A DNA stretch of 64,000 nt from Dehalococcoidia bacterium. Lineage in GTDB: Bacteria > Chloroflexota > Dehalococcoidia > Lucifugimonadales > UBA6952. The position numbers were made by a program, and so were the translations under genes. The DNA is taken from positions 912 to 64,911 of the forward strand of contig JAKUQA010000006.1 of assembly GCA_022450525.1 (NCBI GenBank). Direction: 5' to 3'. The notes beneath the pieces are model-generated. The model was not told the DNA's origin, did not search any database, and worked only from the letters and a program-made list of their open reading frames with translations. This document shows positions 1,965 to 52,142 of the stretch, one piece after another (positions within the stretch are counted from its first letter, which is position 1; every line of letters starts with the position of its first letter).

Positions 1965-2975
1965 TTATTCAGCGGTGAGTTCTCTATCCATTAATGCAGA
2001 AAATGCATCCATTGGGGAAAGGTTTTCAAATATAATTTGGTAGACCATAGAAGTGATTGGCATTTCTATATTTTTTGATAGAGATATCGAATATATTGCT
2101 TTTGTAGTATTTATACCTTCTGCAACGTTTGTCATATTGTTGGTTATGGAATCAATATTATTACCCATTGCCAGTTGTTCTCCAACATATCTATTTCGAC
2201 TGTAGTCACTTGATATAGTAGTCATAAGGTCTCCAATGCCTGCGAGGCCATAAAACGTTGTTTCTTGGGCATTATAGGCCATTGCAAAGCGTTTTATTTC
2301 TGCAAGACCTCTTGTAACAAGAGCAGATTTAGCATTATTACCAAAATTTAATCCATCTACTATTCCTGCCCCTATGGCAATTATATTTTTAAGTGAACCA
2401 CATAATTCTACGCCCGTAACATCCGAACTTCTATAGACGCGAAATGTTTTGGTAGTGAGCATATTTTGTATATCTTGTGCAGTTTCACTATTTAGGCTAG
2501 CTATTACGGAAGAGGCAGGAAGGCCATTTGCAATTTCCTTTGCTAGATTAGGACCAGATAAAACTGAAAATGTGTTATTTTGATTATAGCTAATATATTC
2601 AGCCGCAACTTCACTCATACGTTTATTAGTTTTAATTTCTATACCTTTTGTTGCGCTAATAATAACCTGATTATCATTAAGATAATTTATAAGATTAATC
2701 ATGTTATCTCTGAAACTATGAGATGGAACAGCAAGTAGAATATATTTAGAATTTTTTATACAAGATTCTAAATCATGATTGATCGTTATACTTTTGGGTA
2801 AAGTGATACCTGGTAAATGTTTTTTATCTTCTCTGTCGTTTCGAATTGATTGGGCTTCAATTTCAGTTCTGGTCCAAATATCTACAGGTGTATTTTTATT
2901 GGCAAGTAGGCAAGCAAGCGTTATTCCCCAACTTGTTGTACCCATAACAGTTACCTTATTTTGCATACTTGTCAC
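1965..2975 (-). CDS. gpsA: NAD(P)H-dependent glycerol-3-phosphate dehydrogenase
   Basis: 336 aa. N-terminal Rossmann segment (VMGTTSWG), LSGPNLAKEIA and GLAGIGDLMTT motifs. 4-nt overlap with upstream plsY. Confidence 0.9.
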   Translation of the reverse strand: MTSMQNKVTVMGTTSWGITLACLLANKNTPVDIWTRTEIEAQSIRNDREDKKHLPGITLPKSITINHDLESCIKNSKYILLAVPSHSFRDNMINLINYLNDNQVIISATKGIEIKTNKRMSEVAAEYISYNQNNTFSVLSGPNLAKEIANGLPASSVIASLNSETAQDIQNMLTTKTFRVYRSSDVTGVELCGSLKNIIAIGAGIVDGLNFGNNAKSALVTRGLAEIKRFAMAYNAQETTFYGLAGIGDLMTTISSDYSRNRYVGEQLAMGNNIDSITNNMTNVAEGINTTKAIYSISLSKNIEMPITSMVYQIIFENLSPMDAFSALMDRELTAE

Positions 2976-3592
2976 AGTTTTTCTCCAAATTTATTTTCAT
3001 TACCCTTTAATAATCTTCCGATATTTTCATGATGTTTAACTACTAATAACGGACCCACAATTAAAGCGTAAAGATAATTATAGTCATTTATAACTGAAAT
3101 AGATTGAACAACAAGGATTATCATTGCAGTTATTGCTCCAAGTATAGAACCTAGAGATACATATCTTGTGATAAATAAAATTGGTAAAAACGTTAAAATG
3201 GCGGCTAACGCTGAAAGAGGATTTAAAACTGTAGCTATACCTACAGCAGATGCAACACCTTTACCTCCCTTGAATCCAGCGAAAATAGGCCAATTATGTC
3301 CAAAAATGATGGCGATTCCACATATAGCTATAAGAATGGCATTGTTTGAGTTAATATCCTCTATGAGCATTAGGTAAAAGATCGGTATAGCTCCTTTTAG
3401 GAAGTCTAATATTAGTACTAATATTGCTGATTTTGTACCAAGTATTCTTAAAGCATTAGTAGCTCCAGTTGACTGGCTTCCATGTTTTCTTATATCTATC
3501 CCTGCTTTTAGTTTTCCAATGATTAAACCGACTGGAATACTGCCTATGAGATAAGAAACCGGTACCATAAGTAATAGTATTTGTTGATTCAT
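2972..3592 (-). CDS. plsY: Acyl-phosphate:glycerol-3-phosphate acyltransferase PlsY
   Basis: 206 aa membrane protein with all three PlsY motifs: GSQSTGATNALR, LDFLKG, GHNWPIFAGFKGGKG. Confidence 0.9.
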   Translation of the reverse strand: MNQQILLLMVPVSYLIGSIPVGLIIGKLKAGIDIRKHGSQSTGATNALRILGTKSAILVLILDFLKGAIPIFYLMLIEDINSNNAILIAICGIAIIFGHNWPIFAGFKGGKGVASAVGIATVLNPLSALAAILTFLPILFITRYVSLGSILGAITAMIILVVQSISVINDYNYLYALIVGPLLVVKHHENIGRLLKGNENKFGEKL

Positions 3593-3601
3593 TTTATAAC
3601 C

Positions 3602-23905: not shown

Positions 23906-24709
23906 ATGAATTACGAATATGTGAAATTTGAGGTAAAGAATCAAGTTGCATGGGTGACAATAAATAGGGAAGAAGTACGGAATGCTTTACATCAACCAGC
24001 CCATGTTGAGCTTTATAGTATTTGGAACATGATTGATCAGGACCCTAATATTAGAGTCGCAGTATTAACTGGTGCAGGTGACAAGTCTTTTAGTGCGGGT
24101 AATGATCTGAAATTCTCTACTGAATTGGCTAAAAAAGGGTTAGATCACAATAAATTAGGTAATATGCCTTTGGGAGGGTTTGGAGGTATAACGAATCCTA
24201 GATATAGAATGTCAAAACCATTAATAGCAGCAGTAAATGGTTTTGCTTTGGGAGGTGGGTTTGAACTTGCCTTAGCGTGTGACATTATTATCGCTGCAGA
24301 TCATGCCCAATTTGGTTTACCTGAACCAACTGTTGGTTTGGTCGCAGGTGCTGGAGGAATGCATCGACTTCCTAGACAAATTCCTTATAAAGTAGCAATG
24401 GGTATGATGCTTACAGCTAGACGGCTTTCAGCACAAGATGCTTTTGGCTATGGTTTAGTGAATCAAATATGTCCTTTAGATGATTTGTATTCTGTTGTAT
24501 CAGAATGGGCTTCGGATATAATTAAATGTGCTCCATTGGCTATACAAGGAACTAAGGAAGCCTCAACTATAGGATTTGATTTACCTCTTGAGGCTGCATT
24601 TAATAAAACATATTATTGGATAGATTTGCATATGGCATCTCCAGATAGATTAGAAGGAATGAGTGCTTTTGTAGAAAAAAGAAGTCCTCGATGGAAGGGT
24701 AGTGTATGA
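23906..24709 (+). CDS. Enoyl-CoA hydratase/isomerase (crotonase) family protein
   Basis: 267 aa. GAGDKSFSAGNDL and AAVNGFALGGGFELALACD oxyanion-hole motifs. ATGA overlap with the next gene. Confidence 0.88.
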   Translation: MNYEYVKFEVKNQVAWVTINREEVRNALHQPAHVELYSIWNMIDQDPNIRVAVLTGAGDKSFSAGNDLKFSTELAKKGLDHNKLGNMPLGGFGGITNPRYRMSKPLIAAVNGFALGGGFELALACDIIIAADHAQFGLPEPTVGLVAGAGGMHRLPRQIPYKVAMGMMLTARRLSAQDAFGYGLVNQICPLDDLYSVVSEWASDIIKCAPLAIQGTKEASTIGFDLPLEAAFNKTYYWIDLHMASPDRLEGMSAFVEKRSPRWKGSV

Positions 24710-48278: not shown

Positions 48279-48680
48279 ATGAAATATACAAAAGAGACTA
48301 TTACAGGTTCTTTCTTGCGTGAGTTTGGGATTTCATCAAAAACTTTAGAACACACGCGAATTATCTTAGTTCGATACATTCCTTTCCCTGCATTTACATG
48401 GCCATCTATATTTGGAAATCCTGTTGTTTTTATCTCTGAGAAGAAACTGAAATTTAATAAAGAAAAACAAATAAAAGATAAGAAAAGCCTCGCTTTTGTA
48501 TTGTATCAGTATTGTCATGCTCATCAATTATTGGAATGGGGTTCGTTTCTTTATCTTTGGAGGCATTTTTATCATAGAATATTTTCGCGTAGCACACCTG
48601 TAAGACATTCGCATGTAGAAAGAGAATGTTATGCAAGGGTAGATGAATTGATGGCTTCTGATATGGAAATAAACAATTAG
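48279..48680 (+). CDS. Hypothetical protein (weak DUF4157/zincin-like resemblance)
   Basis: 133 aa ORF in an especially AT-rich stretch. Pattern LREFGIS..L.HTRII...AFTWPSIFGNPVVF....LYQYCHAHQLLEW loosely recalls DUF4157 domains but lacks an intact HExxH. Coding status is uncertain. Confidence 0.3.
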   Translation: MKYTKETITGSFLREFGISSKTLEHTRIILVRYIPFPAFTWPSIFGNPVVFISEKKLKFNKEKQIKDKKSLAFVLYQYCHAHQLLEWGSFLYLWRHFYHRIFSRSTPVRHSHVERECYARVDELMASDMEINN

Positions 48681-48766: not shown

Positions 48767-49540
48767 ATGATCAACATAGATTTAAATGGGAAAAAAGGTA
48801 TAGTTTTTGGTGTTGCGAATCATAGAAGTATCGCTTGGGCTATATCACAAAAACTTTTAGATGCAGGAGCTGATGTTACAATTGCTTATCAAAATGAACG
48901 CTTCAAGTCTGGAGTCGAAAAACTCATAGACGGTTATAGTAATGCATCGTTAGAAGAATGCGATGTTTCAAGCGATGATTCGATTACAGATTTATTTTCT
49001 AATTTAAAAGATAAATATCAGAACATAGACTTTTTAGTTCATAGTATTGCTTTTGCTCCTAGAGAAGATTTAGCTGGTGATTTTTCTGAAACTTCTCGAG
49101 AAAGTTTTAATATAGCTTTAGAAATAAGCTCTTTTTCATTAATTTCTTTGGTCAATAACGCAACAAAATTAATGAAAAATGGCGGGAGTATTCTTGCACT
49201 TACTTTTCAGGCATCTCAATCTGTATACCCAGGATACAATGTCATGGGTGTAGCCAAAGCTGCTTTAGAAAATGAAGTAAAACAACTAGCAGCTGAATAT
49301 GGTTCTAGAGAAATTAGGGTTAACGCGCTTTCACCAGGTCCTATGGATACGTTAGCTGCTAGAGGCATTCATGGATTTATAGATATGAAAAAGATTCACG
49401 CTGAAAAAGCGCCTTTAAAACGAAATATCACACATGACGAAGTAGGTAATGCAGCATTATTTTTATGTAGTGATTTATCGACAGGTATCACTGGTACAAT
49501 TTTACCTGTTGATGCTGGCTATCACATAATGGCTGTATGA
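48767..49540 (+). CDS. fabI: Enoyl-ACP reductase (NADH), FabI
   Basis: 257 aa. GKKGIVFGVANHRSIAWAI start, HSIAFAP, YNVMGVAKAALE (Tyr/Lys catalytic pair), SPGPMDTLAA. Confidence 0.88.
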   Translation: MINIDLNGKKGIVFGVANHRSIAWAISQKLLDAGADVTIAYQNERFKSGVEKLIDGYSNASLEECDVSSDDSITDLFSNLKDKYQNIDFLVHSIAFAPREDLAGDFSETSRESFNIALEISSFSLISLVNNATKLMKNGGSILALTFQASQSVYPGYNVMGVAKAALENEVKQLAAEYGSREIRVNALSPGPMDTLAARGIHGFIDMKKIHAEKAPLKRNITHDEVGNAALFLCSDLSTGITGTILPVDAGYHIMAV

Positions 49541-50100
49541 GTACTAAGAAACTAAAACTTAAACGTATTCCCGAGGGTAGATCTGGTCATTTTTCTATAA
49601 TTCATCGTTATCACCCTCATCTATACTTCAATGGTAAATATATCCGCTACACAGGCGCTATGTTAATAGACAATGAAACAATGTGGATGAGTGATGGCCC
49701 TGAGGAACGTTTAACAATGTCCAGTGCTGTTCGGTGGTGTCCAAATAATGCAGATGTATTAATTGGAGGGTTAGGGTTAGGTATTGTTCCACGATGGTTA
49801 GAACAAAAAGCTAATTCTATAACGATAGTTGAATTTTCAAGAGATGTAATTAATCTTGTTTATGATTATATTAAAACAGCTAAGATGAAAATAATTCATG
49901 ATGATATAAATAATTATTTAGATAAAACAGAAGAAAAATTTGATTTTGTGTATTTAGATACTTGGCCAGATTTAGACGCCAGTCGATTAGATGAAATTAC
50001 TCACCTAAAAAAATTATCAAAAAATGTTTTAAAAAACGAAAACAGTCGTGTAATTTGTTGGGGTGAAAATGTTGTAAGGAAGGCAGCAACAAAGGTTTAA
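49537..50100 (+). CDS. Spermidine-synthase-like SAM-dependent methyltransferase-fold protein
   Basis: 187 aa. VLIGGLGLGIVPRWL (glycine-rich loop), ITIVEFSRDV, IIHDDINNYL, FDFVYLDTWPD. Confidence 0.5.
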   Translation: MSTKKLKLKRIPEGRSGHFSIIHRYHPHLYFNGKYIRYTGAMLIDNETMWMSDGPEERLTMSSAVRWCPNNADVLIGGLGLGIVPRWLEQKANSITIVEFSRDVINLVYDYIKTAKMKIIHDDINNYLDKTEEKFDFVYLDTWPDLDASRLDEITHLKKLSKNVLKNENSRVICWGENVVRKAATKV

Positions 50101-50993
50101 TTAGTATTTTTGCGTTCTGATTGTCTTGCTCTTCGAATTTCACCAGCTCGTGCCAGAATAGCTCTATTAGATTCATTAACTTCCATATATTCCTTACGCC
50201 ATTCGTGTGTGTGCCATGTATAAGGAGTTTGTATGGATGTTCTAGGAAACTTAGCTTCTTCCAAAAGAGTTAATGCCATCTTCGTAATTTCAATTTGCAT
50301 TTCTGAGTCATATGGCAATCCAACTGGATTACCAAGAGGAAAATCTGAAAATATAAATCTTGGCACTCCACACTGTTCAACTATGTCTCGTGCTGACCCT
50401 ATTATTACTGTAGGAATATTATTTTTTTCAAGATGTCTTGCAATCAAACTCACGGTTTGATGACATACAGGTCACAAAGGAACTAGTAGAGCAACGTCAA
50501 CTTGGTCTAGTTGCATATAATTCAGTATTTCTGGAGCAACATTTTGATTAGTTTTCCTTTGAGAATAATCAGTAGGAGCACCATAAAAGTTTTTTGAAAT
50601 TGATTTTATTACTCCTTCTTCTACAAGAGTTTTAAGATGATCTAATGGGAAAAATGTACCCAAATCATGAGTGTGCGTTGCTTTTTTATCCCATGATCTG
50701 TCCATTGTATAAAGTGCAGGAGGAGTAGGTGTTGTCGGAAAGTGATAAGTAGATCCGATTTGTAATATGCCAGGATCAAAATCAAGTGATATATCAGGAT
50801 TTGGTAAAGATGCAGTAGTTACAAGGCCAACATTACATTCGGACAAAGGTTTAGTTAATTTTTGAAAAGGTACGTGGTCATTTACAGCCCATCGATAAGG
50901 GACTTCATAACCTTGTGCCGCATAAAAATGTCGTGACTTATCAATATATGAAACAGCTAATCTGTAGGCAGGATTAAATTGCTCATCATTCAT
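50097..50993 (-). CDS. GrdB/PrdB-family (glycine/sarcosine/betaine/D-proline reductase protein B-like) selenoprotein, Sec encoded by in-frame TGA at 50472-50474
   Basis: Track ORFs 50472-50993 and 50097-50453 share one frame and are separated only by TGA plus six sense codons (PVCHQT). The joined 298-aa product reads QVDVALLVPL-U-PVC-HQTVSLIARHLEKNNIPTV...FPLGNPVG. This parallels the Sec region I recall from clostridial GrdB (DAVILTST-U-GTC-TRCGATMVKEIERAGIPVV...PLGNP). There is no SD before the GTG of the second ORF, and a SECIS-like hairpin follows the TGA. Confidence 0.8.
50443..50461 (-). promoter_or_regulatory. Candidate bacterial SECIS hairpin
   Basis: On the mRNA: UGA, 10 nt (CCUGUAUGUC), then AUCAAAC-CGUGA-GUUUGAU. 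This is a perfect 7-bp stem with a 5-nt loop containing GU. The lower stem is extendable (G-C, U-A, U.G) past a C/U mismatch. The loop lies about 20 nt from the UGA. Confidence 0.6.
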
Positions 50994-50995
50994 AA

Positions 50996-51964
50996 TTAAT
51001 CTAATCCATATAGTTCTTTAATTTCAGGCACATCATGAAGTTTCAGAGCATTGATTGCATTTTTCCAACAGATTTTATCTAATACTTCATCTTTCCATGG
51101 GAGGGAGAAAAAGAAATTAGTATAATTTGTTAGGTTTAATAGAGGATATGCACTACCAAAAATAAATCTATCTGCTATACCCCAAGAACTATTCACTGCT
51201 TTAACCCAATCTTCAGTACCTAACATAGTCAAATAAGCATCAGGAGATACATATATATTATCTCTTCGCATGCTTGCAATAGTAATAATTTCTCTTATGT
51301 ATGGATAATGGCCATGGCCACAAATTATTGTTAAATCTGGAAAATCATGTGCTACTTGATCAATATATTTAGGATGTGCATAGTCAATATTTAGTCCTCC
51401 TAATGGTCCAGATGTTTGGGGGCTAATTGCTATATCTAAATCAAGGCATTTTTGATATATAGGGTAAAGACGTGGGTCTGCTAGATTATCAGCATAATTT
51501 GGACCTCTACCAGGTTCAATAAATACAACTTTAAATCCTAGTTTTTTACAACGTTCTATTTCTTCTAATGGATCATGAAAAACACCCCATGCATCAATAC
51601 CTGCACATGCTACAAACCTAGCAGGATTTTCCTTTTGGATTTGTGCTTGTTCATCATTAGAAGTTGTTCGTTCTGGAAATACACTATGACCTAAAGTCAT
51701 ACCTTTGTTCATTCCTGATACAGATACGGCTGTTGTTACTCCTGCCTCGTCAAGATCTCGAAAGAATGATTCTATAGAACCATCTTTAAATGCATTTATA
51801 GAATCATAAGCTCCACTATGCTGTGTGCGCTGTCTAAAGTAGTCGGATTGTGAAGCAGTTGTTAATCTACATCGCATATCAATAATTTTTGGTCTTTCAG
51901 ATTTAGGTAGCATATTTGATCCACCACCCATGTCTTGGAATGCTAAAGTATTTTCATTTACCAT
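50996..51964 (-). CDS. Amidohydrolase_2-like TIM-barrel protein (atypical metal-ligand positions)
   Basis: Start set at ATG 51962-64 (MVNENT), behind AAGGTGGGG. The track ORF is 21 codons longer. ICGHGHYPY and RFIFGSAYPL resemble amidohydrolase_2 (ACMSD/LigI type). The usual N-terminal IDxHxH reads IIDMRCRL instead. Ends 2 nt before the selenoprotein gene. Confidence 0.5.
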   Translation of the reverse strand: MVNENTLAFQDMGGGSNMLPKSERPKIIDMRCRLTTASQSDYFRQRTQHSGAYDSINAFKDGSIESFFRDLDEAGVTTAVSVSGMNKGMTLGHSVFPERTTSNDEQAQIQKENPARFVACAGIDAWGVFHDPLEEIERCKKLGFKVVFIEPGRGPNYADNLADPRLYPIYQKCLDLDIAISPQTSGPLGGLNIDYAHPKYIDQVAHDFPDLTIICGHGHYPYIREIITIASMRRDNIYVSPDAYLTMLGTEDWVKAVNSSWGIADRFIFGSAYPLLNLTNYTNFFFSLPWKDEVLDKICWKNAINALKLHDVPEIKELYGLD

Positions 51965-52142
51965 TTTCCCCACCTTTTCATATTTTTGAATGTGTTCATA
52001 GTACAGCGATATAGAAACTTGGTACAAGCATAAAAGTCGTTCTTATTTAATATATGAATAAAACTGATATTCAATCTTGTTATTCGCACGATAGATCAGC
52101 TATAATTTTATAGTTTTAATCAATAATATTGTGGAGAATAAA

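Follow-up and report, generated by a model that had tools for sequence, protein, structure and literature searches.

Surveys of marine metagenomes have described a family of selenoproteins with a U-x-x-C redox motif (U, selenocysteine, Sec), which they file under 'proline reductase PrdB'. In the Sargasso Sea, 42 such genes made it the third most abundant selenoprotein family (Zhang, Fomenko & Gladyshev 2005), and the Global Ocean Sampling (GOS) data yielded 235 Sec against 110 Cys forms (Zhang & Gladyshev 2008). Later reviews retain the 'D-proline reductase' label. 'Proline reductase' selenoproteins have also been reported in Anaeromyxobacter and Geobacter, and some Chloroflexi genomes are known to encode selenoproteins. 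A search of the literature turned up no paper in which SAR202 and selenoproteins both appear, and nothing relevant on 'PrdB-like' or 'GrdB-like' selenoproteins. Here we describe a member of this family on a 64,000-nucleotide stretch of contig JAKUQA010000006.1 from a Dehalococcoidia bacterium (hereafter the window), whose host appears to be a low-GC, SAR202-like marine Chloroflexota bacterium; the G+C content of the window is 32-36% throughout. From the sequence we are confident that minus-strand positions 50993-50097 form one gene for a 298-residue selenoprotein, in which UGA codon 174 would be decoded as Sec by means of a selenocysteine insertion sequence (SECIS) hairpin, and the product of which would be a stand-alone reductase of the GrdB/PrdB superfamily.

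The coding sequence (50097-50993; all coordinates of the gene and its parts refer to the minus strand) is a single frame of 298 codons that opens with ATG at 50993 and closes at TAA (50099-50097), and its sole interruption is the TGA at 50474-50472. A first open reading frame (ORF) of 173 aa (50993-50472) terminates at this codon. The frame then continues stop-free through CCT GTA TGT CAT CAA ACC into a second ORF with a nominal GTG start (50453-50097). The GTG that gene callers use as this start (50451-50453) is really the codon of Val181 and lies within the hairpin loop; the residue is an internal Val in homologs, and the codon choice is biased as described below. Around the interruption, residues ~165-186 read VDVALLVPL-U-PVCHQTVSLIAR. 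The UGA (50472-50474) would encode Sec174, the first residue of a U-P-V-C redox motif, and Cys177 (codon TGT, 50463-50465), which is invariant in the alignment of full-length homologs (alignment A2), is likely to be the resolving Cys of the U-x-x-C pair, judging by the published mechanism of PrdB and GrdB.

Elsewhere in the window TGA is an ordinary stop codon. It closes long ORFs at 24709, 25962, 36338 and 49540, as well as a minus-strand ORF at 2951-3601, and a six-frame scan of the whole window found no second long coding frame broken by a single TGA. Because TGA ends these other genes, the genetic code is unchanged, and the data support recoding that is specific to this site. The initial annotation had proposed as much from the letters of the window: that the two ORFs are one gene with a U-x-x-C motif, joined by a stop-free stretch of 18 nt, that TGA at 24707-09, 25960-62 and 36336-38 is a normal stop, and that a standard gene caller would split the gene. 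Each of these points is borne out. The three cited stops are all ends of long coding ORFs, the UGA is followed by a SECIS-like hairpin, and all public annotations of the close relatives give separate ORFs of 173 and 118 aa.

The joined protein, with Cys replacing the stop, was used as a query and identified 1910 homologs. In alignment A2, the full-length homologs place the first Cys of an invariant C-P-V-C-H-Q-T motif in the column of the TGA, which answers the question, raised at the outset, of whether family members carry Sec or Cys at this position. More than 90% of full-length homologs have Cys there, never Trp. Homologs that consist of two genes with independent starts, which the initial annotation had named as evidence against a joined gene, are not what was found: the full-length Cys homologs (~295 aa) are single ORFs that align with the joined translation end to end. 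The closest relatives are called as proteins of 169-176 aa that end exactly at ...LVPL (P0003, P0007, P0076, P0079 and P0101), and their DNA continues with TGA and then the same open frame. P0003, 90% identical to the window protein, comes from an annotated SAR202 cluster metagenome-assembled genome (MAG) that has synteny in common with the window, while P0007 is 87% identical.

The same codon occupies this position far beyond the Chloroflexota. In a survey of one genome per GTDB species, TGA is found at the Sec column in 79 of 80 related loci; the window's own species was not recovered by this survey, as the search patterns did not fit its sequence. The loci span ~10 phyla and include Chloroflexota, Acidimicrobiia, Syntrophales and other Deltaproteobacteria, Binatia, Myxococcota, Pseudomonadales, Reyranella and other Alphaproteobacteria, Rickettsiales, Burkholderiales and Spirochaetales. 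Furthermore, TGA recurs in independent assemblies from many samples (loci L001-L010 and L012-L014; the L012 product and the N-terminal half of the window protein share 62% identity). Given this recurrence and the survey count, the TGA is not an assembly error.

Selection acts on both sides of the codon. In comparisons of the window gene with L001, L007 and L014, the ratio of nonsynonymous to synonymous differences (pN/pS) is 0.11-0.20 upstream of the TGA and 0.08-0.14 downstream, and the six linker codons that follow the TGA differ only synonymously. These results support purifying selection on both halves of the gene and on the six codons between them.

The UGA is followed, within the coding sequence, by a SECIS-like hairpin (50439-50465). 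It comprises a 7-bp core stem (AUCAAAC/GUUUGAU, 50461-50443), a 5-nt loop (CGUGA, 50454-50450) and three outer pairs, and was delineated from a single-sequence fold together with comparative data. The core stem begins 10 nt past the UGA; that of the fdhF SECIS starts ~10-11 nt after its UGA. Among 80 distinct TGA-form sequences the stem cells are paired in 89.6% of cases, versus 25-39% after a shift of the partners by 1-3 columns. At pair 18-28, 73 sequences have G-C and seven have A-U, and none breaks the pair; pair 15-31 occurs as C-G in 64, U-A in seven and U-G in five. Even the GC-rich genomes of L077 and L089 (65-66% GC) pair the rare codons CAA and TTG, which keeps pair 18-28. RNAalifold predicted only four central pairs, and no SECIS or tRNA-Sec model of Rfam matched, either across the whole window at gathering thresholds or in 50350-50550 at E<=10. 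The position of the hairpin and its small, G-containing loop fit the description of bacterial SECIS elements used by Zhang et al.

Several points weigh against reading the gene as a selenoprotein. Neither selA, selB and selD nor a tRNA-Sec gene is present within the 64-kb window according to ARAGORN, Rfam and tblastn with the Escherichia coli SelA, SelB and SelD proteins, so that the capacity of this organism to decode Sec is presumed. The window contains no tRNA genes of any kind and, at gathering thresholds, matches no Rfam family at all; ARAGORN detected no tRNA-Sec in L001-L094. The catalytic scheme, in which the selenolate would attack the substrate, is drawn by analogy with PrdB and GrdB only. 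At the RNA level, the single-sequence fold of an 81-nt stretch is unexceptional when compared with shuffled sequences (z = -0.52), and for that reason the argument for the hairpin is built on comparisons between sequences. Finally, part of the covariation in the stem (CAA/TTG versus CAG/CTG) follows genomic GC content. As a separate observation, a Deltaproteobacteria MAG (L029:10460-11509) carries a selD homolog, 42% identical to E. coli SelD, ~7 kb downstream of its family member; it is the only Sec-machinery gene that tblastn with the three E. coli proteins identified among L001-L094.

Because the stem is made of codons for conserved His-Gln-Thr and Ser-Leu-Val residues, and because its covariation tracks GC content, a control with Cys forms was run. 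For this, 103 distinct metagenome sequences were fetched with a degenerate pattern that left synonymous sites free. The codon choices differ sharply between the two forms. The Ser codon is AGT in 63 of 66 Sec forms but in only six of 49 Cys forms (Fisher p=2e-21), and Val181 is encoded by GTG in 71 of 75 Sec forms versus 10 of 28 Cys forms (Fisher p=1e-9). When only sequences with the identical peptide HQTVSLV are compared, the full 7-bp stem is present in all 47 Sec forms and in two of 13 Cys forms (Fisher p=2e-10). Both the codon choice and the intact stem set the TGA forms apart from the Cys forms. These data show that selection keeps the hairpin as an RNA structure only in genes with UGA at this codon, and that it degenerates in Cys forms even when the encoded peptide is the same.

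Among the alternatives, the one that survives best, although we regard it as improbable, is that the gene encodes a genuine PrdB subunit of D-proline reductase, which together with the PrdA pyruvoyl subunit would cleave D-proline to 5-aminovalerate. The best NCBIfam match is indeed the PrdB model TIGR04483 (E=5.5e-28), with residues 43-261 of the query aligned to positions 20-235 of the 238 in the profile and the U-x-x-C motif within the matched region. In JGI annotations homologs bear the name 'D-proline reductase (dithiol) PrdB', publications on selenoproteomes place the family under 'proline reductase PrdB', and at one locus (L083) a proline racemase gene lies directly upstream. Yet with TIGR04483 the protein reaches 98 bits, where the equivalog cut-off is 300, and it carries extensions of ~40 residues at its N- and C-termini relative to the profile. 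The GrdB-type models fare no better against their cut-offs. These models (GrdH and GrdF, with the accessions TIGR01917, TIGR01918, NF040794 and NF040795 in the set) match residues 96-245 with their Sec-containing C-terminal third (profile positions ~270-425), at 28.7-42.1 bits (E from 5e-11 for GrdH to 6e-7) against cut-offs of 65-800. The Pfam GRDB model PF07355 scores 23.6 bits, marginally above its gathering threshold of 22, with residues 29-171 aligned to positions 202-345 of 347, and many homologs carry a precomputed match to it.

Because the PrdB and GrdB-type scores fail the curated cut-offs, the product is best described as a member of the GrdB/PrdB superfamily and not as a bona fide PrdB or GrdB. 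The initial annotation had placed it in the GrdB/PrdB family and proposed alignment to PF07355 and TIGR01917/01918. Its assignment stands at the level of the superfamily, through TIGR04483 and the match to GRDB just above cut-off, and falls for PrdB or GrdB proper; TIGR01917 and TIGR01918 do match the Sec region, far below their cut-offs. The matches to the PrdB, GrdH and GrdF profiles also cover the D-F-P-L-G-N-P motif (residues 217-223, 50325-50345), a signature common to GrdB and PrdB, of which D217, F218, P219, L220 and G221 are invariant in alignment A2. We note that the PF07355 match stops two positions short of the profile end at 347, just before the Sec column. This suggests that the sequences behind the model had been cut off at the UGA, which would explain the weak scores or missing Pfam annotation of many members.

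Genomic context likewise counts against a genuine PrdB. No neighbour is conserved across ~80 loci, and the precomputed Pfam listings for L001-L014 and L097-L100 contain no match to PrdA or GrdE (Gly_reductase). When all ORFs within 6.5 kb on either side were clustered for 83 loci, no neighbour family was common to more than 18 of them, apart from the gene itself and ORFs in overlapping frames. The commonest Pfam families among 132 immediate neighbours are alpha/beta hydrolase (8), luciferase-like monooxygenase (6) and CoA-transferase III (3). The hosts of the clade belong mostly to aerobic heterotroph lineages and are not Stickland fermenters. As no such partner is encoded nearby in any of the lineages examined, D-proline on a PrdA pyruvoyl subunit is an unlikely substrate. 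The proline racemase mentioned above belongs to an Ilumatobacter MAG (L083:8863-11706; Pfam E=5e-114), where it precedes a TGA homolog that has an alpha/beta hydrolase gene downstream. An alpha/beta hydrolase in this position recurs in ~8 loci. The racemase occurs in this one case, and nothing else hints at proline-like substrates.

A second alternative, to which we assign a smaller probability again, is that the UGA is read as an ordinary amino acid, with Trp or Cys inserted by near-cognate or suppressor decoding or through a lineage-wide reassignment of TGA. In its favour, the ENA annotation of L014 gives Trp (P0001), and the relative L011 has TGG at the site. Reassignment is excluded by the several well-formed genes in the window that end with TGA, and Trp does not agree with the Cys that prevails at this column. 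Moreover, simple read-through needs no hairpin, yet the hairpin is kept after TGA and not after TGY. The two Trp records are also open to simpler accounts. P0001, a full-length 298-aa entry 80% identical to the window protein, shows Trp at the Sec column, but its DNA (L014:829-831) reads TGA; the Trp arose because the caller applied a table with TGA=Trp to the short contig. L011:10265-10267 (ENA ctg464834_3x_l) does have TGG, with the complete SECIS-like hairpin kept, and as this is a long-read contig of 3x coverage the TGG could reflect either an error in sequencing or a change from TGA that is very recent.

The least credible account, either a pseudogene that arose by nonsense mutation or a pair of independent genes or polypeptides (173 and 118 aa), can appeal to the automatic annotations, all of which call two ORFs, and to the possible GTG start of the second, but it is effectively excluded, as is an assembly error, by the conservation of TGA at one column across ~10 phyla and by purifying selection that is as strong downstream as upstream and leaves only synonymous changes between TGA and GTG, and it also conflicts with the single ORFs of the Cys-form homologs and with a GTG that is an internal Val codon, its choice fixed by the hairpin loop.

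If the gene is a selenoprotein gene, as we consider it to be, the hairpin 10 nt downstream of the UGA would act as a bacterial SECIS and recruit SelB with Sec-tRNA(Sec) to the ribosome, SelB being presumed to bind it. The product would be a stand-alone member of the GrdB/PrdB superfamily in which U174-P-V-C177 is predicted to lie between a beta-strand and the N-terminus of a helix. This placement comes from an AlphaFold model of the Cys homolog P0006, used in place of the window protein. The model has an alpha/beta fold and was predicted with a local distance difference test score (pLDDT) of 91 and a template modelling score (pTM) of 0.91. In it, the Sec-equivalent Cys170 sits between strand 163-167 and the N-terminus of helix 171-186, which would be the usual setting for a redox-active pair of the CxxC type. 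A second conserved element, Y-S-Q-R-K-T (residues 143-148, 50550-50567), forms a conserved loop at a helix start; S144, R146 and T148 are invariant, and the P0006 equivalents are located at the N-terminus of helix 141-158. A sequence search of the PDB with the family profile gave no match. Foldseek with the P0006 model found nothing in the PDB at E<=0.001, only a weak resemblance to Rossmann-like or B12-binding domains. In the analogy with PrdB and GrdB, the adduct formed by the selenolate would be resolved by Cys177, and the resulting selenenylsulfide could then be re-reduced by thioredoxin or another cellular dithiol.

Within the window, the selenoprotein gene lies in a synteny block that comprises FtsH, fumarase, an amidohydrolase-family gene (Amidohydro_2, PF04909) that is not present in all relatives, the selenoprotein, a spermidine-synthase-like gene, FabI, MmgE/PrpD and rpoC/rpoB; this block contains no prdA, grdA or grdE. 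The Amidohydro_2 gene (50996-52027, minus strand; Pfam E=1.5e-21) is upstream on the same strand, and its stop codon is located 2 nt before the selenoprotein ATG. The two genes are probably co-transcribed in this lineage. The Amidohydro_2 gene accompanies the selenoprotein gene in the window and in L001-L006, the 90%-identical lineage, but is absent from the 87%-identical one (L007-L010), where fumarase is the next called gene upstream, and therefore it is not an obligatory partner. On the other side, a convergent plus-strand gene of 187 aa (49537-50100), with a weak match to a spermidine-synthase domain (E=2e-4), overlaps the selenoprotein gene by 4 nt at the stop codons, which leaves no room for an intergenic terminator. 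Further along, a plus-strand ORF of 133 aa (48279-48680) without a Pfam match is a conserved hypothetical gene, called at the equivalent position between FabI and MmgE/PrpD in L001-L010.

The family itself has been in print since 2005, and the locus adds neither a new mechanism nor a new family. The supplement of the 2005 study contains 14 entries with PVCHQ, and has entries with both U-P-V-C-H-Q-T and the same hairpin sequence. One of its entries, AACY01093821, reads ...LLVPLuPVCHQTVGLVARHLESNGIPTVIAGSARD... and matches L012 over the stretch they have in common; in another, AACY01491494, the codon and what follows read TGA CCAGTCTGCCACCAAACCGTGAGTTTGG. Strings specific to the lineage of the window were not found in this supplement. 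Separately, L011 contains a second, longer gene of the GrdB superfamily (L011:6122-7267, minus strand; ~375 aa) with its own in-frame TGA and the motif V-U-P-L-C-T-R-T, again annotated as two ORFs. A similar U-P-M-C-P-R-T motif is seen in the Sargasso 'PrdB' entry AACY01802489. As motifs of this type occur among its entries, the published 'PrdB' family lumps together several distinct clades.

What is new here is the copy in a genome of a SAR202-like Chloroflexota bacterium, together with the observations that the clade fails the PrdB and GrdB cut-offs and that no PrdA, GrdA or GrdE and no conserved neighbour accompanies it. The 'proline reductase' label rests only on distant homology and, in view of the failed cut-offs and of the lack of a PrdA-type partner or conserved neighbour across ~10 phyla, is doubtful. 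We see an even chance that the marine 'PrdB' is a partner-less Sec/Cys reductase of the Stickland-reductase superfamily, one that aerobic heterotrophs (SAR202, Acidimicrobiia, Pseudomonadales, Reyranella and others) use on another substrate, and not a proline-reductase subunit. It might, for instance, reductively cleave a C-N or C-X bond of some dissolved organic compound and be re-reduced by thioredoxin. If true, SAR202 would be a selenium-dependent lineage, and enzyme chemistry of the anaerobe type would take part in carbon turnover in the oxic ocean.

There is also a practical consequence for annotation. The family is among the most abundant selenoprotein families in surface-ocean metagenomes, and every public annotation examined for the lineage splits its gene into ORFs of 173 and 118 aa; one pipeline rendered the UGA as Trp. 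Once this is corrected, gene catalogues of SAR202 regain a conserved enzyme, and the lineage stands out as a probable user of selenium.

The locus can be placed among described systems as follows. The E. coli fdhF SECIS resembles the window hairpin in being located within the coding sequence, directly 3' of the UGA, and in having a small apical loop that contains G-U. It differs in sequence, and the window hairpin has no matching Rfam model and is only presumed to bind SelB. GrdB, GrdF and GrdH (~430 aa) resemble the window protein in their C-terminal, Sec-containing third, which matches residues 96-245. This is about one third of the profile; grdA, grdE, grdC and grdD are absent from the vicinity of the window gene, and its U-P-V-C-H-Q motif differs from the U-x-x-C-x-x-C of GrdB (2026 review). 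PrdB (TIGR04483), as in Clostridium sticklandii and Clostridioides difficile, is closer, with homology over nearly the whole profile, a PLGNP-type motif and Sec in a U-x-x-C motif, presumably at the homologous position. In contrast to PrdB, the window protein has ~40 extra residues at each end relative to the profile and no adjacent prdA, prdC, prdD or prdE, and its clade occurs in aerobic marine and soil lineages. Closest of all is the marine 'PrdB' U-x-x-C family (Zhang 2005, 2008), with which the window gene has in common the U-P-V-C-H-Q-T motif, the sequence of the downstream hairpin, the U-x-x-C class and the surface-ocean habitat. Nothing essential separates the two, and the window gene is a further ortholog of that family.

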